The notes under the pieces are model-generated. The model saw only the letters and a list, made by a program, of their open reading frames with translations. It was not told the DNA's origin and searched no databases. Below are positions 6,492-18,218 of a stretch of DNA of 64,000 nt, piece by piece. The DNA lies in the NCBI GenBank assembly GCA_052146795.1, contig JBKQMH010000151.1:1502-65501 (forward strand), given 5' to 3'. Source of the stretch: Verrucomicrobiia bacterium. Its GTDB lineage: Bacteria; Verrucomicrobiota; Verrucomicrobiia; Palsa-1439. Position 1 is the first letter of the stretch. Each line of letters opens with the position of its first letter. Position numbers and translations under genes: made by a program.

Positions 6492-6566
6492 TGGTGCCAG
6501 GGGGGAGAGTTGAACTCCCGACCAAGGGCTTATGAGTCCCCTGCTCTACCACTGAGCTACCCTGGC
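6492..6566 (-). tRNA. tRNA-Met (anticodon CAU); tRNA-Ile2(lysidine) not excluded
   Basis: Minus-strand read: GCCAGGG-TA-GCTC-AGTGGTA-GAGC-A-GGGGA-CTCATAA-GCCCT-TGGTC-GGGAG-TTCAACT-CTCCC-CCCTGGC-A-CCA. It has a 7-bp acceptor stem, D and T arms, a CUCAUAA anticodon loop and an encoded CCA. G1:C72 argues against an initiator tRNA. Confidence 0.8.
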
Positions 6567-6750
6567 GCCGTCGTGAAGTGCCGTATGATTAGCGAGCCGC
6601 CCGGAAATTTCAACTGCGTTTTTTCCCTCAGCATGAAACGGACGACTTCGACAATATCAGGGTGTGAACCGCAAATCTAGGCGGTTCGCCAACAGTCCAA
6701 AACTGGGGCGGCAGCGGCCCGAGTGTTCCTTCGTGGCGGGTTGGAAAAAA

Positions 6751-6905
6751 GTTGTCACTCTTAGTTGTCACTCCTCATGAAAAAATGAGGCGATTCAGGA
6801 TGACGTGAGAAAAAGAGCAGTCGGCGTGTAGCCTTTAATTTTGCGGCGTTTGATGACTAGGGAGCACGCGAGAGGAAACCAGCGAAAATAGCCCGTTCGT
6901 CTTAT
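6751..6905. repeat. Intergenic repeat R1, copy 1 (tandem GTTGTCACTC x2 + hairpin CCTCAT-N6-ATGAGG + ...GATTCAGGATGACGTGAGA...ACCAGCGAAAATAGCCC)
   Basis: About 90% identical to 9129..9217 apart from a ~60-nt insertion (6816..6875). Confidence 0.7.
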
Positions 6906-6935
6906 GAGTCCCCTGCCGTAGGGATCTGGAACCGG

Positions 6936-6966
6936 AAGGTTCGCAAAGCGTCCAAAGCGAGGAGAG
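6936..6966. repeat. Intergenic repeat family B, copy B1 (core AAGGTTCGCAAAGCGTCCAAAGCGAGGAG only)
   Basis: Shares the 29-nt core with the B2-B5 copies. Confidence 0.6.
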
Positions 6967-7019
6967 GCGTACAGTGGTAAACACTGGTTGCGGGTGGCAA
7001 GCTGGGATAAACTCTTGGC

Positions 7020-8945
7020 GTGTTGAAACTGCGTCAGTTCATCCCGTTGTTGGTGGTCGCCGTGGGGTTGCTGGCGTATCACAACAGTTTCACCGCGCCG
7101 TTCATCTTCGATGACGTCACCTCGATCGTGAAGAACCCGACGATCCGTCGACTATGGCCGATATGGGGGCCGCTGTTGCCGCCTCATGAGGGCGGCTCGA
7201 CAGTCGAAGGCCGGCCCGTGCTCAATTTCTCATTGGCCCTGAACTATGCGGTTGGCGGCGTGACGCCATGGGGTTATCACGCGCTGAATCTGGCGATTCA
7301 CATCCTCGCCGGCTTGACCCTGTTCGGGATTACCCGGCGGACGTTGCTGCGGCCGGCCCTGTGCGGGCGGTTTGGCGCGGAGGCAACGTCCTTGGCGCTG
7401 GCTGTCGCTGGAATCTGGACAGTCCACCCGCTGCAAACGGAGGCGGTCACGTACGTGGCGCAACGCGCCGAATCGCTCATGGGGCTGCTCTATCTGCTGA
7501 CGTTGTATGGCTTTATTCGGGGGGTAGAATCGCTGAAGTCGGGGTGGTGGTACGCGCTTTCCGTAACCGCGTGCCTGCTTGGCATGGGGACCAAGGAGGT
7601 CATGGTTTCCGCCCCGCTGATCGTGCTGGCCTATGATGGGCTGTTTGTGGCCGGGCGCGTCCAACAGGCGTGGCGGAAGCGATGGCGGCTCTATACGGGG
7701 CTGGCGAGCACTTGGCTGCCGCTCGGTTGGCTGGTGGCGAATACGGGCACCCGGGGCGGCTCCGCCGGCTTGGGGGGTGTCGTTGGCTGGTGGGAGTACG
7801 CGCTGACGCAGTGTCGGGCTATTGTGCGGTACTTGAGGTTGTCGGTGTGGCCCGACCCGCTCGTTTTCGACTACGGGACAACGACGATCCCCCACTTGGG
7901 GCAGGCTTTGCCTTACGCGCTGATTCTGGCGGCCTTGGCTGCGGGAACCATGATCGCGCTGTGGCGCCACCGCCCCATCGGTTTCCTGGGCCTCTGGTTC
8001 TTCGCAATTCTGGCCCCAAGTTCCAGCGTGGTGCCGGTGATCACCCAAACAATGGCCGAACACCGCATGTACCTGCCGCTGGCAGCGGTAGTTACGATGG
8101 CCGTGGTCGGCGCGTTTGCGCTCGGGAAACGCCTGCTGGGCGCGTGGCCGAGGCTGGGTCGGTTGGTCGCGTGGGGAATGGTCGGTGTCGTAGTGCTGTG
8201 GCTGGCAGTGCTGACGATCCAACGCAATTTTGACTACAGCTCAGAATTACGGATCTGGCAGGACACGGTGGCCAAGTGTCCCGACAACCCGCGCGTGCAC
8301 TACAATCTGGGGGTCGTCTTGGGGCAAGCGGGCAAGATTGACGATGCCATTGGGCACTATGAGCAGGCACTGCGGATCAAACCCGATGATGTCAAAACGC
8401 ACTGCAACCTGGGGATCGCCTTGAGGCAAGAGGGCAAGATTGACGATGCCATTGGGCAGTATGAACAGGCGCTTCGGATCAAGCCGGATTACGCCGACGC
8501 GCACAACAATCTGGGGACCGCCTTGAGGCAAGAGGGCAAGATTGACGATGCCATTGAACAGTATGAACAGGCACTACGGATCGATCCCGATTTCGCCGAT
8601 GCGCACTACAATCTGGGGACCGTCTTGGGGCGGGCGGGCCGAATACCGGAGGCGATAGAGCATTTGCAGGAGGCGCTGCGGATCGAGCCGAATTTCGCCG
8701 AGGCGCACTGCAACCTGGGCATCGCGTTGGGGCAAGTCGGCAAGATTGAGGATGCCATTGGGCACTATGAGCAGGCGCTACGGATCAAACCGGATTACGC
8801 CGATGCGCACTACAATCTGGGGATCGCCTTGGGGCAGGCGGGCCGGATACCGGAGGCGATAGAGCACTTGCAGCAGGCGCTACGGATCAAGCCCAATTTC
8901 ACCCAAGCGCAGAACGCGCTTGCGCGGCTGCAAGCTCGCCAGTAA
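7020..8945 (+). CDS. TMTC-like protein: N-terminal polytopic membrane domain (DUF1736/PMT-like) + C-terminal TPR repeats
   Basis: 641 aa. N-terminal LAYHNSFTAPFIFDD...NPTIRRLWPIW...NLAIHILAGL signature as in transmembrane-and-TPR (TMTC/O-mannosyltransferase-like) proteins. About 11 TM segments, then at least 7 canonical 34-aa TPRs (HYNLGxALxxxGKIDDAIxHYEQALRIKPD). Confidence 0.7.
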   Translation: MLKLRQFIPLLVVAVGLLAYHNSFTAPFIFDDVTSIVKNPTIRRLWPIWGPLLPPHEGGSTVEGRPVLNFSLALNYAVGGVTPWGYHALNLAIHILAGLTLFGITRRTLLRPALCGRFGAEATSLALAVAGIWTVHPLQTEAVTYVAQRAESLMGLLYLLTLYGFIRGVESLKSGWWYALSVTACLLGMGTKEVMVSAPLIVLAYDGLFVAGRVQQAWRKRWRLYTGLASTWLPLGWLVANTGTRGGSAGLGGVVGWWEYALTQCRAIVRYLRLSVWPDPLVFDYGTTTIPHLGQALPYALILAALAAGTMIALWRHRPIGFLGLWFFAILAPSSSVVPVITQTMAEHRMYLPLAAVVTMAVVGAFALGKRLLGAWPRLGRLVAWGMVGVVVLWLAVLTIQRNFDYSSELRIWQDTVAKCPDNPRVHYNLGVVLGQAGKIDDAIGHYEQALRIKPDDVKTHCNLGIALRQEGKIDDAIGQYEQALRIKPDYADAHNNLGTALRQEGKIDDAIEQYEQALRIDPDFADAHYNLGTVLGRAGRIPEAIEHLQEALRIEPNFAEAHCNLGIALGQVGKIEDAIGHYEQALRIKPDYADAHYNLGIALGQAGRIPEAIEHLQQALRIKPNFTQAQNALARLQARQ

Positions 8946-8952
8946 GTGACTA

Positions 8953-9075
8953 CCCTCGGCACTTCAAACCGCACGGTTCGCAAAGCGTCCAAAGCGGGGA
9001 GCTATCTTCGACCTGACGCAAATGGGGAGCCTTTGCTGAGGGTGTGGGCTGTCGAAGCCCCACGGCGTTCGAGGA
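8953..9075. repeat. Intergenic repeat family B, copy B2 (full length ~120 nt)
   Basis: CCCTCGGCACTTCAAACCGCACGGTTCGCAAAGCGTCCAAAGCGGGGAG...CAAATGGGGAGCCTTTGCTGAGGGTGTGGGCTGTCGAAGCCCC. Aligns with B5 (16783..16900) and B4 (12313..12415). Confidence 0.7.
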
Positions 9076-9128
9076 GTTGGCATTGTGGGGCGTCGCGGAT
9101 GCGACCCGTACCCGGCGAGGGTGCGGAT

Positions 9129-9217
9129 CGTTGTCACTCTTACTTGTCACTCCTCGGTCGAAAATGGGTCGATTCAGGATGACGTGAGAGAAAACCAGCG
9201 AAAATAGCCCTTTCGTA
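9129..9217. repeat. Intergenic repeat R1, copy 2 (compact form)
   Basis: GTTGTCACTCTTACTTGTCACTCCTC...GATTCAGGATGACGTGAGAGAAAACCAGCGAAAATAGCCC. Abuts the stop of the PKD protein gene. Confidence 0.7.
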
Positions 9218-11134
9218 TTACGGCAACAATACGCGCACGCGGTAATACAGGTCGGGACTGGCCGTTACATTCGAGTCCGTCATGCTGGTGATGGTACCGG
9301 AGCCGTTCCCGCCACTGAGAATATTGGTCTGGCCCGTATCCTCCCAACCGCCATTCGTGTAGTCGCCGATGGCGTCACCGGTTGTGTAATCCAGCACGTT
9401 CGTCCGCGACGCAATCCCCGGCATGTAACTGTTGTCCCCGTTGGCGCCAAGATATGTCACTACCACGTTCGTATTCCCCGCCACCAACTGCTCCGCGATG
9501 CTGATAATGTGCAGGTACGCTGCCCCGTTGGTGGCATTGAAGCCCGCCATGAACTTGTTGGTGTTGCTCATGCCGTCGCCCGTGTAGGAGGCGTTCGGAC
9601 CACATAACGCGCAGTTGTTGGTGAGACCGTAGCCCCGCTGCCACCACGCGAATGGATCGTACACGCTGATCAAGTTCACCACCGTGTCCGTACTGGACTC
9701 ACCATTACCGGTCACGATTTCCTGCACGGTGTAGGAGCCCGGATTCACGTAGATGTCCGACGGGTTCTGACTGCTCGACGTGTTGCCATCCCCAAACGCC
9801 CATGCCCAGCCTGTGGGCGAGCCGGTCGAGGTATCGTAAAAATACACAGTCAGTGGCGCCGGCCCGCTGGCGGGATTGTTCGTGAAACTCGCCACCGGCG
9901 GCGGGGGTGTCGCACTGCGGACCACAATGTAGTTGGGCTTGGTGTTGGTGTTGGACCCGCCAAGGCCGCTGACGATCAAACTTACCTGGTTGCTGCCCGT
10001 CGTTTGATAAACGTACTGAACGCTCGTCGCCGTGGTGTTCGTGGTGCCACCATCCCCAAAGCTCCAGAACCGATTGGTAATCGAGCCGGTCGACGTGTCT
10101 GCGAACGTCACGGTCAGGGGTGCGGACCCATTGGTGGGACTGCCGCTGAAAAGGGCCGACGGCGGACCAACCGATCCCAGGCTCGAGAGACCCAGCGTGA
10201 CCAATTCGTAGGCGGCCGGCACATTCGTGGTTTGGCCGGCCGTCATCCCCGCAATGTTGTTGGATACCATCAACATATCGGTGCGGTTCAGCGCGTTGAC
10301 CGTCACCGCCTGATTGGAAACCAGTCCTGACGCCAGTCTCGCCGCGTAGGTATTGGTAATGATCCGGCACCGCACCGTTACCGGAACATTCGAAGGCATC
10401 GGGCTGGTCGGTTGGAACCAAAAGAAACTGCTGACAAAATCATTCGTCAATCCCGACATCGCGATGCCCTGCCATTGGGAGTAATTAATGTTCGGGCTTA
10501 CCCAGGTGAACATCAGGTGGCTGCCGTCGGACAACACGGTGGCGATCATTCGATCGAACCCGTTGAACAGCTCCTTTTCATAGGTGGTGGATTCGGTAAG
10601 GGCATAGGCGTCGTTCGTGATGTTCGCGTGGTAGTCGCTGTCGAAGACAAAGGTGCCGGAGCCGGCGTTCCATGTGTCCACCTCGGTTATCGGGTGGATC
10701 TCATACTGCCGTTCCCCCTGGTGCTCGGTATAAAAGCGAAAGATCCCGTGCGTTCTGCCCTGATCCGTATTTAGCGTGTTCAGATGGGAGACCTGGGCGG
10801 ACGTCACGTTGATGACTTCGGTGTGGATCGGTGAGTAACCTGAGTTGGAGCCGGTCTTGCCGGTACCAGACGAATTGATGGCCATCTCGATATCCTCATC
10901 GCCATCGGAGTTGATGGAACCGCTGGGGAACAAGAACTGCCACAAATTCGTACCGCCGCCGATCGATGGGTACTGCGCGTTGGCCAACGGGGAAATCTGG
11001 AGGCTGTCCACCTCCCACAAACTGGCCATCAGATTGACTTCAGCAAAGGTATTGGTCATGATCGTCTGTGCACGGACCACCCCGGCACAGATAAACAGAG
11101 CGACCCCAGCCAGCACGACCTTTTTCGTCACCAT
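9218..11134 (-). CDS. Secreted PKD-domain protein (two PKD domains)
   Basis: Signal peptide MVTKKVVLAGVALFICAGVVRAQ. Two PKD signatures (PLTVTFADTSTGSITNRFWSFGDGGT and PLTVYFYDTSTGSPTGWAWAFGDGNTSS). Thr/Ser/Asn-rich. Confidence 0.7.
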   Translation of the reverse strand: MVTKKVVLAGVALFICAGVVRAQTIMTNTFAEVNLMASLWEVDSLQISPLANAQYPSIGGGTNLWQFLFPSGSINSDGDEDIEMAINSSGTGKTGSNSGYSPIHTEVINVTSAQVSHLNTLNTDQGRTHGIFRFYTEHQGERQYEIHPITEVDTWNAGSGTFVFDSDYHANITNDAYALTESTTYEKELFNGFDRMIATVLSDGSHLMFTWVSPNINYSQWQGIAMSGLTNDFVSSFFWFQPTSPMPSNVPVTVRCRIITNTYAARLASGLVSNQAVTVNALNRTDMLMVSNNIAGMTAGQTTNVPAAYELVTLGLSSLGSVGPPSALFSGSPTNGSAPLTVTFADTSTGSITNRFWSFGDGGTTNTTATSVQYVYQTTGSNQVSLIVSGLGGSNTNTKPNYIVVRSATPPPPVASFTNNPASGPAPLTVYFYDTSTGSPTGWAWAFGDGNTSSSQNPSDIYVNPGSYTVQEIVTGNGESSTDTVVNLISVYDPFAWWQRGYGLTNNCALCGPNASYTGDGMSNTNKFMAGFNATNGAAYLHIISIAEQLVAGNTNVVVTYLGANGDNSYMPGIASRTNVLDYTTGDAIGDYTNGGWEDTGQTNILSGGNGSGTITSMTDSNVTASPDLYYRVRVLLP

Positions 11135-11210
11135 TGGCGAAGCATCTCACAGATTGGCCAACATCGCAAGAAAAACTTGGGCTATGCGGAACCTTCTTAC
11201 CGGCGGAGAT

Positions 11211-11657
11211 TCACTTGTGCGCGGCGGGGACAGCCGCGGTATTGGTAGAACTACCGGTGTTCGGCTCTTCCGTCCCATTGAAATAGTATGACACCCTCGT
11301 GCCATCCTTTTTCATCCATTGCAGACGGCCGCCGACATGGGTGGCCCCGATATTGCCGAGCCAGTCGATCACCTCGCCGACGCCGTTGGTCTGCGAGACG
11401 TCGAACTCCGCTTCGTGCTCTTCTCGTTCGCCATGGTACCCCGCTGGTTGGAACCCCTTGGCTAGGAACACCGTCGATGAGAATTTTCCGTCGGCAAAGC
11501 TCAGCGTGTCGTCGAATCCCTGGTCACTCTTGTCAGCGGGTGCGTCCGCGAGAACAATTCTTACCTTGGCGCGTATGCCGTCCAAGGCCCCGGCCCCGCA
11601 GTTCATCGCAATGACCGTCAGCGCCACAATACCCAGTGCGCAGAGGGTGAGCCTCAT
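11211..11657 (-). CDS. Hypothetical secreted protein
   Basis: Signal-like MRLTLCALGIVALTVIAMNC. No recognisable domain. Start chosen at MRL. Confidence 0.35.
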   Translation of the reverse strand: MRLTLCALGIVALTVIAMNCGAGALDGIRAKVRIVLADAPADKSDQGFDDTLSFADGKFSSTVFLAKGFQPAGYHGEREEHEAEFDVSQTNGVGEVIDWLGNIGATHVGGRLQWMKKDGTRVSYYFNGTEEPNTGSSTNTAAVPAAHK

Positions 11658-11861
11658 AAATCGGCTCGTCTTTGCTTCGTGGTACATAGCTGCGAAGTGT
11701 AGCAAGTTTCCGTGGCCAAGCAAGCGCCCGTGCGGGATACCGGTCGCACTTCAAACCAGGCGCACGGGTACTATCGGTTCGGCACTACCCCATGAGGATT
11801 CGGCGTGAGCGGGCCGGTGGCAGCTGATGCCATCGCCCTTGCGCCGCCGCCTGCCGGATTC

Positions 11862-11915
11862 CCTTCGTCATTTCAAATCGCAGGGTTCGCAAACCGTCCG
11901 AAGCGGGAACTCCTT
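11862..11915. repeat. Intergenic repeat family B, copy B3 (partial)
   Basis: TTCAAATCGCAGGGTTCGCAAACCGTCCGAAGCGGGAACTCC. Confidence 0.55.
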
Positions 11916-11992
11916 TTTGTGCTTTCTTCGCGGTTCCGTCAGGAGTCTAATGGGGTTCACACACTTGGCGGATGTAGAAGTTAGGAGAATTT

Positions 11993-12271
11993 ATGAAACT
12001 GAGAACGACGGAGGACGTCCTGCTGATAGTTGCCTTTACCCTTATTGCCGCAGGCCTTATCCTCGGCATTGGCGGCTGGATGTGGGGTCTGAACGCTTTG
12101 TCCGGTGTTGTGGGCACCACGGCGACCCCGCCCGGACACGTTCAGACCGGAATTAGCGTTGTGTTCATCTGCTTTTTCATAGCCACTCCGATGTTGATTA
12201 TAGGATTTCTCATGCTTGTAGTATCCGTTATCGTTCATTTCGCGACGAAGCGGAAAGGCCATGCAAACTGA
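11993..12271 (+). CDS. Small membrane protein (2-3 TM), unknown function
   Basis: 92 aa, hydrophobic helices, AGGAG 7 nt upstream of the ATG. Confidence 0.45.
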   Translation: MKLRTTEDVLLIVAFTLIAAGLILGIGGWMWGLNALSGVVGTTATPPGHVQTGISVVFICFFIATPMLIIGFLMLVVSVIVHFATKRKGHAN

Positions 12272-12312
12272 ACCACATGGTGGAGCGAACTGACGAGCCG
12301 CTACGCGGTAAT

Positions 12313-12415
12313 CCTCGGGAGTTCAAACCGCAAGGTTCACAAACCGTCCGAGGCGAGGAGCCGTTTTGTTTATACGGCACAATTGGGAAACCTCGGCTGA
12401 GTGTGTGGGATCGTT
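12313..12415. repeat. Intergenic repeat family B, copy B4
   Basis: CCTCGGGAGTTCAAACCGCAAGGTTCACAAACCGTCCGAGGCGAGGAG...CTCGGCTGAGTGTGTGGGATCG. Retains the CTCGG/CCGAG inverted repeat. Confidence 0.65.
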
Positions 12416-12488
12416 TTAGACCTCGGCGACACCGTGGTGATCCAACAGCCCACTCGACTTGCCGGGGCGCCACTGTTACCGTTCGGCC

Positions 12489-14456
12489 ATGTCTGGGGGT
12501 ACTACGGCACTCGGGTTGTCTGAGGTTGCGGAACCCGCGGCCTCACCGCACCGATGGAAGACCATCCTTGGCGGTGGGATGATTGTCCTCGCCGCTCTGG
12601 CGGCCTACCACAACAGCTTCGCAACGCCATTTCTCTTTGATGATCTCGCCTCGGTTGAGAAAAATCTGACCATTCGCCATCTCTGGCCGATCTGGAAAGC
12701 CCTGTCGCCGTCCGCCACTTCGCTCGTGGGAGGTCGCCCGGTCGTGAACCTCTCTCTGGCCCTCAACTATGCGCTGGGGGGGACGGGCGTGTGGGGTTAT
12801 CACGCGTTCAATCTGAGCGCGCATGTTCTGGCGGGCTTGACGCTGTATGGCATCGTGCGGCGGACATTCTTGAGCCCGTTGTTGCGGGAACGATTCGGCG
12901 CGGCGGCCGAGTGGGTAGCTCTGGCGGTGGCGGTCATCTGGACGGTTCATCCGCTGCAGACGGAAGCAGTGACCTACATATCCGAACGTTGCGAGTCGTT
13001 GATGGGGTTGTTCTACCTGCTGACGGTGTATTGCTTCATTCGTGGGACGAACGCCCAGAGATCGGTCTGGTGGTTCACCTTGTCCGTGGCCGCGTGTTTC
13101 CTGGGCATGGCGAGCAAGGAGGTGATGGTGACGGCTCCCGTGATGGTGCTGCTGTATGATCGGACGTTTGTCAGCGGGAACGTTCGGGAAGCATGGACTC
13201 GACATTGGCGCCTGTATCTGGGGTTGGCCAGCAGTTGGCTGTTGCTGGGCTGTTTGATGGCCGATTTGCACAACCGCGGTGTCGGCTATGGCTTGGGGAT
13301 TGCGTGGTGGGGCTATGCGCTGATGGAATGTCGAGCGGTGGTGCAGTACCTCCGGCTCGCCGTTTGGCCGCATCCGCTGATTTTGGATTACGGAGAGTAT
13401 GTGCCGACAGGGCATCTGGCGGCGGCACCGTACGTACTGATTCTGGCGGCCCTGGCAACCGGCGTTTTGTTCGCGCTGAAGCGGTACCCAGCCATCGGGT
13501 TTGTTGGGGCCTGGTTTTTCGTGATTCTGGCTCCGACCTCCAGCGTGGTGCCGATTGGGGGATCACCGATGGCGGAACACCGGATGTACCTGCCGCTGGC
13601 ATCCGTGGTTACGATGACCGTGGTCGCCGCGTTTGCGCTCGGGAAATGGCCGTTACATAAGCAGCAGGGTGCCGTACTGGGATGCGTGGCGGGTGGTTTC
13701 GTGGTGGTGCTGCTCACATTCCTCACAATCCAACGGAATCGGGACTACAACTCGGCGGTGACCATCTGGCAGGACGCTGTGGAGAAACGTCCCAACAACC
13801 CCCGTGCCCACTACAATCTGGGGGTCGCCTTGGGGCCAGCGGGGAAAATTGACGATGCCGTTGAACACTATGAACAGGCGCTACGGATCAAGCCGGATTA
13901 CGCCGAGGCACACTACAATCTGGGGGTTGCCTTGGGGCAACTGGGCAAGATCGACGATGCCATTGAACACTATGAACAGGCGCTGCGTTTCAACCCCGAT
14001 TACGCCGATGCGCACGACAACTTGGGGACCGCCTTGAGGCAAGTGGGCAAGATTGACGATGCCATTGAACAGTATGAGCAGGCCCTGCGGATCAAGCCCG
14101 ATTTTGCCATGGCGCACTACAACCTCGGGAATGCCTTGAGGCAAGTGGGCAGGATTGACGATGCCATCGTCCATTACCAGCAGGCCCTGCGGATCGAACC
14201 CGATTTCGCCGACGCGCACAACAACCTGGGGACCGCCTTGGGGCGCGCGGGCAGGATACCGGAGGCGATAGAGCATTTGCAGCAAGCGCTGCGGATCAAG
14301 CCCGATTTCGCTGAGGCACACTGCAACTTGGGGATCGCCTTGGGGCAGGCGGGCAGAACACCGGAGGCGATAGAGCATTTGCAGCAGGCGCTGCGGATCA
14401 AGCCCGATTTCGCCCAAGCGCAGAACGCGCTGGCGCGACTGCAAGCCCGCCAGTGA
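12489..14456 (+). CDS. TMTC-like protein, paralog of 7020..8945 (membrane domain + TPR array)
   Basis: Same LAAYHNSFATPFLFDD...IRHLWPIW signature. Colinear with the first copy. C-terminus nearly identical (ALRIKPDFAQAQNALARLQARQ*). Alternative start MIVLAAL at 12579. Confidence 0.7.
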   Translation: MSGGTTALGLSEVAEPAASPHRWKTILGGGMIVLAALAAYHNSFATPFLFDDLASVEKNLTIRHLWPIWKALSPSATSLVGGRPVVNLSLALNYALGGTGVWGYHAFNLSAHVLAGLTLYGIVRRTFLSPLLRERFGAAAEWVALAVAVIWTVHPLQTEAVTYISERCESLMGLFYLLTVYCFIRGTNAQRSVWWFTLSVAACFLGMASKEVMVTAPVMVLLYDRTFVSGNVREAWTRHWRLYLGLASSWLLLGCLMADLHNRGVGYGLGIAWWGYALMECRAVVQYLRLAVWPHPLILDYGEYVPTGHLAAAPYVLILAALATGVLFALKRYPAIGFVGAWFFVILAPTSSVVPIGGSPMAEHRMYLPLASVVTMTVVAAFALGKWPLHKQQGAVLGCVAGGFVVVLLTFLTIQRNRDYNSAVTIWQDAVEKRPNNPRAHYNLGVALGPAGKIDDAVEHYEQALRIKPDYAEAHYNLGVALGQLGKIDDAIEHYEQALRFNPDYADAHDNLGTALRQVGKIDDAIEQYEQALRIKPDFAMAHYNLGNALRQVGRIDDAIVHYQQALRIEPDFADAHNNLGTALGRAGRIPEAIEHLQQALRIKPDFAEAHCNLGIALGQAGRTPEAIEHLQQALRIKPDFAQAQNALARLQARQ

Positions 14457-14492
14457 GTGGCAGGCTCCCGTGTATCAGTTCGGAGGTTTGGA

Positions 14493-15149
14493 ATGGATAT
14501 CTCTTTCTCGTGTGCCGATTGCGGTCAAAAGCTTGTCGTCGATGAATCGGGCACCGGTCTGGTTGTCCCGTGTCCGACGTGTGGGCATAATCTTACGATT
14601 CCTGCTGCCCCAACTCTTGCGGGAACGACTTCGAGAAAACCGTCAGCGACAAGCGCCGCAACCTCATCGGCGGGTCCAAGCAAATCCAATTGGCAGCCAA
14701 AGATTCCCAAGGCCGAGAAATGGATGGTTGCACTGGGGGGCGCGTTGCTCGGCATCGGATTGTTAGGCTTCTTCGGCTACACATTCTACGGCAGGCTGTC
14801 GCAGAAAGATCCCCCGGCTCTGCTGAAACAGCACGTGGCGACCATGCAGGAGACGTATGCCGGGCTTTTTCATGCGAAGATTGTCGAGTGCACCTATGAT
14901 GTGCAGAAGACCGACTCTCTGGTCTCCCCCTATATCGGGTATGTGAACTACACCGAAGACATGGGCAAAGGCGCGATGGCGAAATACAAAATCACCCTAG
15001 CATTTCAAGACGGTGCATGGGTGTTACAGACTGTACAGAGGCAGTTTGTCTGGGCGGGAGGCTCAAGCTCTTGGAAAGAAATTTTGCCTTCCGATGACAC
15101 CGCCAGTAGCGCTCCGTTCCGGGTGGTTAAGCATGCCCTCGGACTGTAA
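14493..15149 (+). CDS. Zinc-ribbon (CxxC...CPTC) membrane-anchored hypothetical protein
   Basis: MDISFSCADCGQKLVVDESGTGLVVPCPTCGH, one TM helix, then a C-terminal soluble domain. GGAGG 6 nt upstream of the ATG. Confidence 0.5.
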   Translation: MDISFSCADCGQKLVVDESGTGLVVPCPTCGHNLTIPAAPTLAGTTSRKPSATSAATSSAGPSKSNWQPKIPKAEKWMVALGGALLGIGLLGFFGYTFYGRLSQKDPPALLKQHVATMQETYAGLFHAKIVECTYDVQKTDSLVSPYIGYVNYTEDMGKGAMAKYKITLAFQDGAWVLQTVQRQFVWAGGSSSWKEILPSDDTASSAPFRVVKHALGL

Positions 15150-15425
15150 GGATGCGCCGACATGTTTTCCCCAAATCATCACACTGTCGGACTTGTCGGT
15201 ATATGCAAGGCGGTGCTGACAAGCAACCACTTCAACGGCGCGAAAAAGGACAATGAAGCCCATAAATACGCGCCCGCACCGTTCGTCGTTCTGTGTTGAC
15301 AGCGACTCCGAAGCGGACAAAAATTGGCACGGTAACAATAACAGCGTTCCATTGGCGTGCCGCGTTTTGCAGCCAACTCGCCACTCAGGTATGACGTGAA
15401 GAAAAATAATTCTGTGAACCTAAAG

Positions 15426-16109
15426 ATGTTGCTGTTTGGTGTTGGTTTGTCGTTGATGTTGGCTGGACAAACACTCCGCGCCCAGCAACGCGATGCTGAC
15501 CTCGCGCGAATCCACGAACTCCGAGCCAGTGCGGACCGAGGCGATGCCAAAGCCCAGATTGAATTAGGCGTCTGCTACGACAAGGGCCAGGGCGTGAGGA
15601 AAGATGAGGTGGAGGCGGTGAAATGGTTTCGCAAAGCCGCCGAGCAGAATCTCGCCGTGGCTCAATACAATCTGGGCGTCTCCTACGCCACCGGCCAGGG
15701 CGTGACGAACGATGTGGTGGAGGCAACGAAATGGTTTCGCAAAGCCGCCGAGCAGAATCTCGCCGCAGCTCAATACAATCTGGGCTGCGGCTACTACACG
15801 GGCCAGGGCGTGACGAACGATGTGGTGGAGGCACCGAAATGGTTTCGCAAAGCCGCCGAGCAGAATCTCGCCGCGGCTCAATACAATCTGGGCGACTGCT
15901 ACGACAGGGGCCACGGCGTGAAGAAGGATGAGGTGGAGGCGGTGAAATGGATGGCACTGGCGGCGGCGCAGGGTATGGAGGAGGCAAAGGCTGCCATCCC
16001 TTTGCTTCAAAAGAAGCTGCCAGAGAAGCAAATTGAGGACGGGGAATGGCGCGCGATTGATTGGCTCGAAAATTGGAAGAGGGCGACGGCAACTGCGCCG
16101 CAGCAGTAG
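15426..16109 (+). CDS. Sel1-repeat (HcpA-like) secreted protein
   Basis: Signal peptide MLLFGVGLSLMLAGQTLRA. At least 4 Sel1 repeats (KWFRKAAEQNLAxAQYNLGxxYxxGxGVxxD). Confidence 0.7.
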   Translation: MLLFGVGLSLMLAGQTLRAQQRDADLARIHELRASADRGDAKAQIELGVCYDKGQGVRKDEVEAVKWFRKAAEQNLAVAQYNLGVSYATGQGVTNDVVEATKWFRKAAEQNLAAAQYNLGCGYYTGQGVTNDVVEAPKWFRKAAEQNLAAAQYNLGDCYDRGHGVKKDEVEAVKWMALAAAQGMEEAKAAIPLLQKKLPEKQIEDGEWRAIDWLENWKRATATAPQQ

Positions 16110-16152
16110 CGGCGAGACTGCGGCTTACACAAACTCTTCAACGGTACGAAAA

Positions 16153-16566
16153 ATGATAATCAAGCAACTGAATACGAGACGAGTCATCGCCGTGTTGTCA
16201 AGTGTGGTATGTATCTGGCTGGCGCTGTCGACGACGACGTGTTTTGGCGGGGAGACCGTTGAGCCGGGGCGAGCCGTCTTGGACAAACTCCTCAAGGCAA
16301 TCGAAACGAACGACCACGACGCCGTCATGGCGGTGGATGGCACCGACGGTTTCAAGGCGGCTTTGACAAAGGAGAGTCTGGCAGGAGCCAGCGGCCAGCT
16401 TTCGCCACGGATGAAGAAGGGGTATCAGTGTTTGTATCTGGGCGAATTGAAACAGCATGGCACTCGGGTTCTTCTTTGGAAGCTCGTGTTCAAGGATGGC
16501 GGTGATGACACGCTGGCCAGGCTCATTCTGAAGGACGGCAAGGTGGCCGGGTTTGGGTTGCAATAA
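16153..16566 (+). CDS. Hypothetical secreted protein
   Basis: MIIKQLNTRRVIAVLSSVVCIWLALS signal-like N-terminus. No known domain. Confidence 0.4.
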   Translation: MIIKQLNTRRVIAVLSSVVCIWLALSTTTCFGGETVEPGRAVLDKLLKAIETNDHDAVMAVDGTDGFKAALTKESLAGASGQLSPRMKKGYQCLYLGELKQHGTRVLLWKLVFKDGGDDTLARLILKDGKVAGFGLQ

Positions 16567-16635
16567 TAGCTCGCCGTTCGTTCCGTTTCCTTCAACCATA
16601 GGCCACGCCATTGTCTTCGCTCGGGCATTAGGCTG

Positions 16636-16778
16636 ACGTGCACTACAATCTGGGGGTCGCCTTGGGCCAAGCGGGCAGGATGCCGAAAGCGATCGAGCAA
16701 CTTGAACAGTCGCTAAAACCCCGGCCAATTTTGCCCCGCGACAAACGCGTTGGCACGACTGCAAGCTGGCCACTAAGT
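16636..16778 (+). pseudogene. Orphan 3' fragment of a TMTC/TPR-family gene (last TPR + C-terminus), degenerate
   Basis: Nucleotide similarity to 8800..8945 (CACTACAATCTGGGGGTCGCCTTGGG...GCAAGCTGGCCACTAAGTGG against ...GCAAGCTCGCCAGTAAGTGA), followed by repeat B5 exactly as at the intact gene ends. No upstream membrane domain. Confidence 0.5.
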
Positions 16779-16782
16779 GGCA

Positions 16783-16900
16783 ACCCTCGGACGTTCAAAC
16801 CCCAAGGTTCGCAATTCGTCCAACGCGGGGAGGCATTTTGAGATGGCGCAAATGGGGAACTCCTGCTGAGGGATGTGGCCGTCGAGGCCCACAATTCCAA
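16783..16900. repeat. Intergenic repeat family B, copy B5 (full length)
   Basis: CCCTCGGACGTTCAAACCCCAAGGTTCGCAATTCGTCCAACGCGGGGAG...CAAATGGGGAACTCCTGCTGAGGGATGTGGCCGTCGAGGCCC. Confidence 0.7.
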
Positions 16901-16919
16901 GTGGGGGGGTGGTGGCGGC

Positions 16920-18218
16920 CTACTCAACCGTACCAATCTGGAAGTTCAGAATGGCCCGCTGGATCTCATAGTCGTACTTGGCGCTGGTATTGGCGATCTG
17001 GGCTGATGTCATGTCGAGCTGAGATTGGCTGACCTCGACGATGGAACTGCTTCCCATCGTGTAGCGGGCCTGCGCCAAATCAAAGGCCAGACTCGCGTTC
17101 TCGAAGAGCTTCTGGGTCAGGTCGAGCCGTTCGTAGGCGTAATTGACATTCAGGCCGGCGTTCCGCACGTCCTGGATGGCCGTGTTCTCGGCGTCGCGAA
17201 GTGATTCGGCGGCGGCTTGCGCGCGTAGTTCGGCTTCGGATGCCTTGGCCGCGTTCAACCCGGCATCGAAGACCGGGAGGCTCAAGTTGACGCCGGCAGC
17301 GGCGTAGCGATCCTCAAAATGGGCTGTATCACGAATCGGGATCAGCCCCCCGGCACCAAACGCCATGATGGTCGGATAGTTCAACGCCTTTTGGGCCCGG
17401 GCAAATTGCGAGGCGGAATCACGTTCCAACCGCAATCGGGCCAAATCCGGGCGTTGCGACAATGCGGTATCGACCAGCCCGGTGGGATCGACGGTCTTGG
17501 GCGCTGGCCTGGACTCTTCAATCAAACGATAGACACGGCGGTTGCGATCTCCCAAGACCGTGGACAGGGCATTGAACGCCTGATCCAAATCGTTTTGAGC
17601 CTGGGCGACCAACAATTGGCCCTGTTCGTAGGTCACGGCGGCGAAACGCAAATCGAGTTCCGACCGAAGTTTGTTGGTGGTCAGGGCGGTGATCTGGTCC
17701 AACAAGACCTTGCGCGTTTCCAGGGTTTGGCGGGCCACGTCCAACACCGATTGTGCCTTCAGCGCTGTGAAGAATGCCACGTCTACCTGGAGCACGATTT
17801 CATCCCGTGTGGCCTCGGTGTTGGCGGACGCTGCACGTGAGGACAATCGCGAACTGTTCAGCAGGTGCGCCGTCCGTCCGAAATCGGTCAGCAATTGGGT
17901 GACCATCACCCCATCCGCCTCGCGCTGGTAGATAGACGAATTCGCCAAGCCGCCCGCCGCAATGCGGGTGTTGGCGTCCCCGTGCCCGACCGCCGTGGCG
18001 TCAAACATCACATTCGGCAGGAGCCCGGCCCGCACCTGTGTAATCACCTGCTTCGATGCCAGCGCCTGCAAGTCGGCTTCGGAGATCTTCGGATGATTGC
18101 GCAGTGCGATATTCCGCGCCTCGCGTAGCGTCAGTGGTTGCAGTTCCTCCGCATTGGCCGGACTGAGGCCAATTGCGAGACAACAGACAGCGGCGAGGTG
18201 GGTCCGTCCCCAGTTCAT
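16920..18218 (-). CDS. Outer-membrane efflux protein (TolC/OprM family)
   Basis: Signal peptide, two OEP repeat halves. 4-nt overlap with the upstream RND gene. Confidence 0.8.
   Translation of the reverse strand: MNWGRTHLAAVCCLAIGLSPANAEELQPLTLREARNIALRNHPKISEADLQALASKQVITQVRAGLLPNVMFDATAVGHGDANTRIAAGGLANSSIYQREADGVMVTQLLTDFGRTAHLLNSSRLSSRAASANTEATRDEIVLQVDVAFFTALKAQSVLDVARQTLETRKVLLDQITALTTNKLRSELDLRFAAVTYEQGQLLVAQAQNDLDQAFNALSTVLGDRNRRVYRLIEESRPAPKTVDPTGLVDTALSQRPDLARLRLERDSASQFARAQKALNYPTIMAFGAGGLIPIRDTAHFEDRYAAAGVNLSLPVFDAGLNAAKASEAELRAQAAAESLRDAENTAIQDVRNAGLNVNYAYERLDLTQKLFENASLAFDLAQARYTMGSSSIVEVSQSQLDMTSAQIANTSAKYDYEIQRAILNFQIGTVE

Follow-up and report, generated by a model that had tools for sequence, protein, structure and literature searches.

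A conserved DNA element of about 65 nucleotides (nt), called E in the following, was characterized in a stretch of 64,000 nt from a Verrucomicrobiia bacterium (assembly GCA_052146795.1, contig JBKQMH010000151.1, positions 1,502 to 65,501; this whole stretch is referred to as the window) and in a large number of related loci. E is located directly behind the stop codons of many unrelated genes, and it is conserved as a short, asymmetric block. Related genomes combine different left-hand with different right-hand neighbours at E, and therefore E is a recombination joint. Our reading, which is tentative and held with less than even confidence, is that, in a clade of Verrucomicrobiia from peat and soil, E would mark the 3' boundary of units comprising a single gene, and that it doubles as the joint at which these units are exchanged.

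Sequence conservation and distribution of E

The first-pass annotation of the window had described a family of five dispersed repeat copies, and this description was confirmed. The five copies, B1 to B5, are all on the plus strand and span positions 6911-16840, and a decayed sixth copy is also present. The 29-nt core that had been quoted originally was found with at most three mismatches at positions 6936, 8973 and 16804 and not at all in 100 shuffled sequences, and a 28-mer shifted in register additionally matched at 11872 and 12322. A repeat search of the window revealed five in-register copies of 51 nt at 6911, 8948, 11857, 12307 and 16779, which are 75-100% identical, and an nhmmer profile built from the five copies recovered all of them with E values of 1e-14 to 2e-17. 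Beyond these five copies and the weak sixth one (6667-6703), nhmmer found no further E in the 64 kb of the window.

In an anchored alignment E has a length of about 65 nt, (TAA)GTGGCAaCCCTCGGAAGTTCAAACCGCAAGGTTCGCAAAnCGTCCAAAGCGGGGAGCCAATTTC, with sharp edges at about -19 and +42 relative to the anchor. Its core, AAGGTTCGCAAAnCGTCCAAAGCGGGGA, is near-invariant, and in a block of about 30 nt nearly every position is close to 2 bits. This conservation of the core also holds in 21 copies that lie outside the search pattern. E is conserved to about 95%, compared to about 70-88% for flanking coding DNA. The number of core mismatches in non-seed copies was 3.5 for copies between two co-oriented genes, 5.7-5.9 for copies with one co-oriented gene, and 9.2 for copies with none, all based on small numbers of copies. 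A further comparison was possible with L006, a locus of a relative (the gathered loci are denoted by L numbers), which is 88% identical to positions 9182-12216 of the window overall, while E and its leader differ at only about three positions. B3 and its ortholog in L006 have private variants in common and are about 97% identical. The retention of private variants by orthologous copies, at an identity well above that of their surroundings, indicates that E copies are held individually by selection and are not homogenized, and thus argues that purifying selection is acting on each of them.

A wider sequence search brought a whole family to light. A degenerate pattern fitting the five window copies, scanned against one genome per species with about 0.3 chance matches expected by our own arithmetic, was found in 39 loci, all of them in 12 metagenome-assembled genomes (MAGs) of Verrucomicrobiia/Verrucomicrobiae. 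These MAGs stem from peat, bog and soil, often contain E on several contigs, and have 1-7 strict matches each. A metagenome scan identified E on at least 120 contigs, largely from soil and peat-type projects. Pattern scans and nhmmer searches over the gathered loci yielded a total of at least 235 copies in at least 159 further loci. The gathered loci are fragments of 1-14 kb, and the window together with 165 loci comprises 1.03 Mb. No match to E was found in viral contigs, and a phage origin or a phage-type promoter was rejected on this basis. A relationship to plasmids or to insertion sequence common region (ISCR) elements was also discarded, as BLAST against plasmids yielded only chance matches of 24 nt. 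A literature search for the core string returned only unrelated primers. Many of the metagenome and Logan contigs (L040-L159, L163-L165) start or end inside or beside E or the arm, a second repeat described below, and it seems that these repeats break the short-read assemblies of the respective genomes. The idea that the ends of Logan contigs are transcript ends was rejected, because contigs break at repeats.

Two of the original suggestions were that E is a small RNA (sRNA) or an element of the 3'-untranslated region (UTR), and an analysis of structure and covariation had been recommended. This analysis was performed with 58 copies and revealed neither a conserved fold nor covariation. RNAalifold predicted -2 to -4 kcal/mol, 3-8 pairs and no compensatory pairs on either strand. 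No Rfam family matched at the gathering score in the whole window, nor at an E value of up to 1 in the region 6560-17000. Folds of single E sequences, compared to shuffled sequences, had z scores of -1.0 for the plus strand and -2.5 for the minus strand, and folding of the 3' flank of E did not exceed that of controls. For the B3-type leader (see below), a helix seen by eye, ACUCCU/AGGAGU, was dismissed, as it is 70.3% paired compared to 70.0% in shuffles. The complementarity CCTCGG/CCGAGG is indeed unique to B4, as had been noticed before; it results from an AAA to GAG change of B4 itself and is not a feature of the family. Single-stranded DNA folds of E plus leader had z scores between +0.8 and -2.3, the structure differed for each copy, and no consistent attC-like hairpin was observed. 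Reading of the sequence revealed none of the RYYYAAC or GTTRRRY boxes of attC sites in E. Neither the consensus nor longer versions of E folded consistently better than shuffles. E has no inverted repeat that spans or bounds it, and no direct repeats representing target-site duplications were present in the boundary-aligned flanks of 235 copies; on the left, most copies adjoin a stop codon, and on the right, one of a small set of modules. Without terminal inverted repeats and a single-stranded hairpin, E lacks the defining features of miniature inverted-repeat transposable elements (MITEs), repetitive extragenic palindromes (REPs) and attC sites. Therefore, the proposal of a MITE-like element could not be upheld, and the same is true for the structured RNA. 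The alignments indicate that E is conserved as a linear sequence and not as a hairpin.

Known signals of transcription were also searched for. A scan of the window copies revealed neither an intrinsic terminator nor a sigma-70-like promoter. Pairing of the G-run of E with downstream sequence over at least 5 bp was observed in 32% of the cases compared to 21% for shuffles, and the longest T run had a median of 2. A terminator-like hairpin on the G-run was rejected, because it occurs in a subset of copies, barely above the level of shuffles, and has no T-run. Reading of the sequence revealed a layout of the type recognized by extracytoplasmic function (ECF) sigma factors, TTCAAAC-CGCAAGGTTCGCAAAn-CGTCC, with GGAAC at the -35 position of B1. 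The pattern of conservation did not agree with this layout, the spacer having about 2 bits versus 0.8-1.6 bits in the -35 region, and none of the 235 copies is directly followed by a sigma factor gene. In the consensus, no register of E or of the arm fits the sigma-54 motif GG-N10-GC, and a promoter layout of the Bacteroidetes type did not fit either. Lastly, a small open reading frame (ORF) starting from TAA-GTG within E was excluded on reading the sequence, as the variable positions are not synonymous and the junctions to PEP-CTERM genes are in another frame.

Gene context of E, its flanks and recombination

Genes were called with a home-made caller that is based on codon usage and was trained on the gathered loci; at the window locus its calls match the public gene calls. 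The strand of E is constant within the locus in all but two of about 160 loci. For copies with both neighbours called, the upstream and the downstream gene are on the strand of E in 105 copies, the upstream gene alone in 36, the downstream gene alone in 26, and neither of them in 11. E typically begins 0-30 nt past the stop codon of a co-oriented gene (median 22 nt), and the distance to the next start codon is much broader (median 233 nt, 10-90% range 57-655 nt). The stop codons of about 40 unrelated C-termini lie 14-49 nt ahead of the anchor. This coupling across unrelated C-termini shows that the proximity of stop codon and E is not an artefact of copied paralog junctions.

The first-pass annotation had tied the repeat to the 3' ends of TMTC-like paralogs. 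The junction, ...LQAGQ* TAA-GTGGCA-E, was indeed found repeatedly across many genomes, yet the tie is not exclusive to this family: the 134 unique upstream genes comprise 35 TMTC-like genes, 26 PEP-CTERM genes and 73 others. Counting unique neighbours, TMTC-like genes are found 35 times upstream versus 28 times downstream, and PEP-CTERM genes 26 times upstream versus seven times downstream. A co-oriented downstream gene is present for about 73% of the copies. Pfam families of genes downstream of E include PIG-L deacetylase, methyltransferase, DUF374 and DUF5069, and NUDIX-, GNAT-, MOSC- and CYTH-like proteins are among the neighbours as judged by eye from the translations only. Stacks of the order E-gene-E-gene-E are common and include runs of unrelated genes of about 100-350 amino acids (aa). 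An island linked to tRNA genes was considered and rejected, as tRNA genes are present in merely six of 40 loci. The TMTC-like genes, which consist of a membrane domain and TPR units with a period of 102 nt, form tandem paralog arrays in the window, L004, L037, L039, L047 and L143. Their last ~40 nt (...NALARLQAGQ*) are conserved on the DNA level across paralogs and species, far above the rest of the gene.

The right flanks of E fall into distinct classes, one of which is array-terminal, while two represent conserved leaders fused to the next gene. The commonest class is GCCAATTT with 89 copies, which runs on into unrelated DNA. Among 68 evaluable copies of this class, a convergent gene follows in 31, a gene without an E after it follows in 25, and 12 are stack-internal; thus 56 of the 68 are array-terminal. 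The B1-type leader comprises 58 nt from E to the start codon of a TMTC gene. All nine exact copies of it are followed by a plus-strand gene at 58 nt, and at L021, L023, L035 and in metagenome loci the leader has the same distance and is always followed by a plus-strand gene. The B3-type leader, CTCCTTTTTGTGCTTTCCTCGCGGTTCCATCAGGGGTCTAATGGGGTTCGCACACTTGACCGGTGTGGAGGGAAT, has a length of about 80-110 nt and ends in a Shine-Dalgarno sequence (e.g., in L061, L090, L056, L073, L007 and L018). It was found in 26 unique copies in front of unrelated genes, and a plus-strand gene follows almost always.

An extended arm of the repeat had been described previously. It is real at B2, B4 and B5, and it turned out to be a separate dispersed repeat, CAAATGGGGAACCTCTGCTGAGGGGGTGGGCTGTCGAGGCCCACAATTC, that is found directly joined to E, at a distance of some tens up to hundreds of nt, or on its own. 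The window and the first 39 loci contain 20 copies of the arm, with or without an E nearby (including L008, L016, L006 and L039). Its small hairpin (GTGGGCY, a GTCGA loop, RGCCCAC) has C-G, U-A and U-G alternatives, as judged by eye. A further reusable module, TGCCCGTCATTCYGAGC...GAATCTCTC...TGCGTCGATTGC, is present between E and TMTC-like genes in L037, L025, L008, L001 and L032, and L032 also contains a second, left-truncated E 270 nt past a full E.

A comparison of the 400-nt flanks of all copy pairs revealed 52 pairs that are alike on both sides, 31 that are alike on the left side only, and 30 that are alike on the right side only. In one case the exchange could be followed in detail. L065 equals L111 leftward through E and a B3-type leader (95%), and it equals L056 rightward (94%), with the breakpoint at the end of the common E-plus-leader tract. 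In other pairs the similarity is lost at the left edge (-4 to -20) or at the right edge (+42 to +60) of E. When the stretch from the tRNA-Met gene to the PKD gene is compared between the window and L006, the difference lies exactly in the E-flanked cargo: the order is B0-(A repeat)-B1-TMTC1-B2-(A repeat) in the window and B0-arm-728-aa gene-(A repeat) in L006 (these features are described in the next section). A clean presence/absence of a single unit of gene plus E between loci was not found, and one candidate was explained by paralogy. Genes of mobile elements were seen within a few hundred nt of E in a small number of loci: genes for tyrosine recombinases are near E in three of about 160 loci (L005, L043 and L114), an IS110 transposase gene is near E in L032 and L125, two contigs with the same sequence, and an IS4-like transposase gene, judged by eye, in L025. 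ECF sigma factor, integrase or insertion sequence (IS) genes were not found as regular neighbours of E in the gathered loci.

The window locus

The first part of the locus is situated between a tRNA-Met gene (6492-6566, minus strand) and a PKD-domain gene (9218-11134, minus strand). The decayed sixth copy, B0 (6667-6703, plus strand), adjoins the tRNA gene and is a weak nhmmer match (E = 0.12); its counterpart at the syntenic position in L006 is a well-preserved right half of E, GGTTCGCAAAGCGTCCACAGCGGGGAGCC. B1 (6911-6965, plus strand, 42.9 bits) is degenerate in its left arm, and its right block is intact. It is followed by the B1-type leader (6966-7019, plus strand), which is also found elsewhere with about 58 nt, and by the TMTC-like gene 1 (TMTC1; 7020-8945, plus strand), which encodes a membrane N-terminal domain and TPR repeats matching Pfam TPR families and is annotated as a 641-aa gene in GCA_052144815.1. 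B2 (8943-9009, plus strand, 65.9 bits) begins at the TMTC1 stop codon and faces the 3' end of the convergent PKD gene, with a copy of the arm hairpin repeat in between (9019-9061, plus strand; nhmmer arm model, E = 1e-10). A segment of 158 nt that represents the 3' flank of the PKD gene and probably is the "family A" of the first-pass annotation is duplicated in the window (6747-6904 and 9130-9220), on either side of B1-TMTC1-B2, and has a tandem GTTGTCACTC motif at its start. L006 has a single copy of this segment, which is 93.7% identical and adjoins the PKD gene. Directly before B1 (6903-6919), 17 nt from the anticodon-arm region of the tRNA-Met gene (6530-6546) are repeated, cttatgagtcccctgc, and the same fragment precedes E in L016, where the contig likewise contains a tRNA-Met gene.

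The second part follows a gene of 148-159 aa on the minus strand that ends near 11687. B3 (11858-11918, plus strand), which was found by the repeat search and nhmmer, is orthologous to the copy in L006. Just upstream of it (about 11835-11860), cttgcgccgccgcctgccgGATtcc resembles a decayed PEP-CTERM tail (..LRRRL..) with a mutated stop codon, as judged by eye in comparison to the PEP-CTERM-to-E junctions of L010 and L020. The B3-type leader (11919-11992, plus strand), which ends in the Shine-Dalgarno sequence and has 26 unique homologs, precedes an ORF for a small membrane protein of 92 aa (11993-12271, plus strand). The exact protein is annotated as a gene on six public contigs, and no Pfam family was matched by it. 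B4 (12303-12368, plus strand, 60.7 bits) lies 32 nt past the stop codon of this small ORF and 120 nt ahead of TMTC-like gene 2 (TMTC2; 12489-14456, plus strand), a 655-aa gene call with Pfam matches to PMT_2 and TPR; a diverged arm repeat is located between them (12380-12433, plus strand, E = 7.6e-9). Past the TMTC2 stop codon (14454-14475), GTGGCA is the only remnant of E, and the next nucleotides, ggctccc, are reverse-complementary to the GGGAGCC of E. This may be the scar of a deletion or an inversion of E. Orthologous TMTC genes elsewhere (e.g., in L030) retain a full E 3' of the stop codon.

Three small plus-strand genes are situated between TMTC2 and a frameshifted TMTC-like remnant of about 150 nt (16627-16776, plus strand), which comprises the last TPR unit and the tail ...NALARLQAGH*. 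The remnant has 80-85% DNA identity to 8794-8951 and contains internal stops in its translation. It is followed by B5 (16774-16840, plus strand, 64.2 bits), which is separated by 80 nt from the end of an outer-membrane efflux gene that is convergent to it (16920-18218, minus strand, Pfam OEP), and by the best copy of the arm repeat (16849-16903, plus strand, E = 1.2e-13). The earlier observation that B2 and B5 follow TMTC 3' ends is therefore correct, B2 being situated past TMTC1 and B5 past a remnant. It had escaped notice that B1, B3 and B4 are also upstream of plus-strand genes, i.e., 54, 74 and 120 nt ahead of TMTC1, the 92-aa ORF and TMTC2, respectively, so that copies are not placed at 3' ends alone. 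The window may be viewed as two plus-strand stacks among minus-strand genes, namely, B1-TMTC1-B2 and B3-smallORF-B4-TMTC2...(TMTC remnant)-B5.

Interpretation of E and rival explanations

As E is conserved as a linear, asymmetric block of about 30 nt, a sequence-specific protein would have to recognize it, either on the DNA or on the sense RNA. The near-invariant block would be the putative binding site of a lineage-specific protein, and this protein would most likely act at the boundary of transcription units, either by factor-dependent formation of 3' ends or by insulation of the upstream gene. E would belong to the upstream unit, and the leader of the next unit would be joined directly behind it. 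Gene units are duplicated, replaced and stacked by exchange at E, and this exchange would be ordinary homology-driven recombination, made possible by the 65 bp of identity that the copies share, and not a dedicated site-specific reaction. A boundary element would account for the proximity to the stop codon, for the enrichment of families upstream of E, for the array-terminal GCCAATTT class at convergent junctions, for n+1 copies around TMTC1, and for the mosaic flanks.

Several points weigh against this reading. The placement of E and the recombination at it follow from the sequence data, and the molecular function of E is one that we infer from its position alone. E has neither a hairpin nor a U-tract and cannot be an intrinsic terminator, and to our knowledge sequence-specific linear terminators are not an established mechanism in bacteria. 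A co-oriented upstream gene is lacking in 26 of the 178 copies for which both neighbours were called, including B1 and B3 of the window. B3 is conserved without an intact upstream gene, although the seeming relic of a PEP-CTERM tail precedes it. The B1-type gap of 58 nt contains no obvious promoter, which suits a promoter or intercistronic role of E better than termination, and five of six left-truncated copies still precede plus-strand genes. In addition, the search patterns that yielded most of the copies are fixed in part of the core, which inflates the apparent conservation at the fixed positions, and the home-made gene caller implies some error in the context counts.

The main rival is that E is a portable promoter or 5' control module, to which RNA polymerase with a dedicated sigma factor or an activator binds. 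The start would be near +30 behind an ECF-like TCAAAC-N16-CGTCC, and copies at 3' ends would be by-products of recombination. We consider this explanation unlikely. It agrees with the AAC-N16-CGTC spacing of the consensus, with the co-oriented downstream gene of about 73% of the copies, with the conservation of B3, which has no intact gene upstream, and with the left-truncated copies ahead of plus-strand genes; also, the B1-type (58 nt) and B3-type leaders stand at fixed distances before non-homologous genes and resemble complete 5' regions. The spacer GCAAGGTTCGCAAA, however, is more conserved than the putative -35 region, in contrast to recognition by a sigma factor alone, a convergent gene lies opposite 27% of the copies (46% for the most frequent class), and E is close to the stop codon before it, while the start codon after it lies at widely varying distances. 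Moreover, the window copies have no sigma-70-like site, and no ECF sigma factor gene adjoins any copy, one being about 3 kb away in L095. Putative mobile promoters have been described as intergenic families of 50-100 nt with at least 80% identity that precede non-homologous genes, in one genome as well as between genomes (Matus-Garcia, Nijveen & van Passel 2012, PMC3488235). E falls under this operational, purely descriptive definition, since unrelated genes are preceded by E together with leaders of the B1 or B3 type, at more than 90% core identity. However, mobile promoters are defined solely by their upstream position, and E is anchored more tightly to the preceding stop codon. Promoter activity is putative in both cases, and about a quarter of the E copies have no co-oriented downstream gene. 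PEP-CTERM genes of Proteobacteria, for which an organization in single-gene operons has been described, share a cis-regulatory site upstream that has a sigma-54 -24/-12 motif and an activator site (Haft et al. 2006, PMC1569441). In both cases conserved DNA accompanies single-gene PEP-CTERM operons in one lineage and in the context of a surface biology with TPR proteins and exopolysaccharide. E differs from that site in the missing GG-N10-GC and in its mainly downstream position at PEP-CTERM genes (26 versus 7). A bifunctional junction, at which one unit ends and another starts, would agree with all observations; such a junction amounts to an overlap of the boundary element and the portable promoter.

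The neighbourhood of E also resembles integrons. Chromosomal integron arrays with homogeneous attC sites, e.g., the Vibrio cholerae repeats, consist of co-oriented single ORFs with a repeat of about 60-120 nt after the stop codon, and attC sites are imperfect palindromes (R''-L''/L'-R') that fold as hairpins of the bottom strand. In an integron-like cassette system, units of leader, ORF and E would be cut out and inserted at E by a recombinase encoded elsewhere, an explanation that we regard as improbable. The statement that the E arrays form a previously unrecognized system of this kind, with a linear site of about 65 nt in place of a hairpin and a putative recombinase encoded elsewhere that would spread the units in genomes of peatland Verrucomicrobia, is no more probable. 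As in integron arrays, single, often small and unrelated co-oriented ORFs of an accessory type have the same repeat within 0-30 nt of their stop codons, and the repeat marks the places where the neighbours of relatives differ. Some arrays have n+1 repeats for n genes (L003; B1-TMTC1-B2 in the window), a terminal E class closes arrays, the flanks are mosaic among close relatives, and a tyrosine recombinase gene adjoins E in three loci. Unlike attC, E has no dyad symmetry, no bottom-strand hairpin and, as read from the sequence, no R''/R' boxes. Within the fragments of 1-14 kb (1.03 Mb in total), an integron integrase is not encoded nearby and no recombinase is regularly close by, E is dispersed among many contigs instead of being gathered in one array, and the 5' leaders are long relative to those of integron cassettes. 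Likewise, the sole mapped breakpoint is at the end of the E-plus-leader homology and not at a fixed point in E, and clean presence/absence of a unit was not observed. A third explanation, that a non-autonomous mobile element ends in E, be it a MITE or a rolling-circle element of the IS91/ISCR type with an oriIS-like end, is very improbable. Its basis is a match of 14-15 nt, GCGGTT(T)GAACTTCC, near one boundary between the bottom strand of E, GCGGTTTGAACTTCC, and oriIS of ISCR27, GCGGTTGAACTTCCTATACC (PMC8894482; sequence read in L166), together with the tetranucleotides GTTC, CTTG and CTCG in E, which are used by the IS91 family (PMC13181058). Ends of this family are also non-palindromic, strand-specific and located beside variable genes (PMC8894482, PMC13181058), and IS110 and IS4 (by eye) transposase genes are near E in a few loci. 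But the matching part of E is its variable, less conserved left arm, an exact match was seen in no more than 28 of 235 copies, and E lacks the terminal TATACC and thereby the oriIS motif ...GAACTTCCTATACC(C). No IS91-family (HUH) transposase was found by tblastn or phmmer in the 1.03 Mb of the window and 165 loci, BLAST against plasmids gave no link between E and ISCR, terminal inverted repeats and target duplications are absent, and the copy number per genome appears to be low with 1-7 strict matches per MAG. A structured non-coding RNA, i.e., an sRNA or a cis-regulatory fold in a 3' or 5' UTR that was duplicated with the genes, is largely refuted and hardly credible any more: about 94% of the copies are in sense orientation in probable transcripts and the minus-strand consensus folds somewhat better than shuffles (z = -2.5), but neither Rfam matches nor compensatory pairs exist, the leader helix equals shuffles, and the 3' flank behaves like controls. 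The most prosaic explanation, which the first-pass annotation itself had named as a refutation of its proposal, was functionless debris of local TMTC duplication that is confined to these paralogs. B2 and B5 do share the last ~40 nt of the TMTC genes along with E. Nevertheless, E is found beside dozens of unrelated genes in more than 150 loci of 12 or more species, its conservation by far exceeds that of the coding DNA around it, and its boundaries are sharp; neutral debris is already refuted and has the least credibility of all.

Two further kinds of known elements are of interest for comparison. REP elements and bacterial interspersed mosaic elements (BIMEs) of enterobacteria as well as the Neisseria intergenic mosaic elements (NIMEs) with dRS3 are mosaic intergenic repeats, and REP and dRS3 are palindromic and occur in both orientations. 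The regions around E are similarly composed of short reusable modules (E, arm, B1- and B3-type leaders, GTCATTCYGAGC) at gene ends, which are substrates for recombination. In contrast to these repeats, E is non-palindromic, strand-locked to transcription, and much better conserved across species. JUMPstart/ops (GGCGGTAG) is found in the 5' leaders of long polysaccharide operons. Like E, it is a strand-specific sequence element at surface-glycan genes, which is read on the DNA during transcription and not as an RNA fold; unlike JUMPstart/ops, E is found at the 3' ends of single genes and between them, and ops is absent from E. Taken together, E fails the defining tests of attC, REP, MITE, Rfam RNAs, an intrinsic terminator, a sigma-54 site and an IS91 end, and it partly fits an ECF promoter. 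We assign E to the known kind of dispersed intergenic boundary repeats, within which the family is large, unusually conserved and strand-locked.

Both the boundary element and the cassette system can be directly tested on existing metatranscriptomes of peat and long-read metagenomes. A factor-dependent boundary, if true, would be an unusual signal for termination or insulation in bacteria. A recombination site, if true, would represent a new cassette system, in which TMTC-like glycosyltransferases, PEP-CTERM surface proteins and small accessory genes would form the units, and every unit would have a leader of its own. Peat and soil harbour abundant uncultured Verrucomicrobiia, whose surface glycoproteins and large families of TMTC-like and PEP-CTERM paralogs are poorly understood. 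As E is present where these genes end, and likewise behind many small accessory genes, in 12 or more species, it offers a handle on how they are organized, expressed and shuffled.

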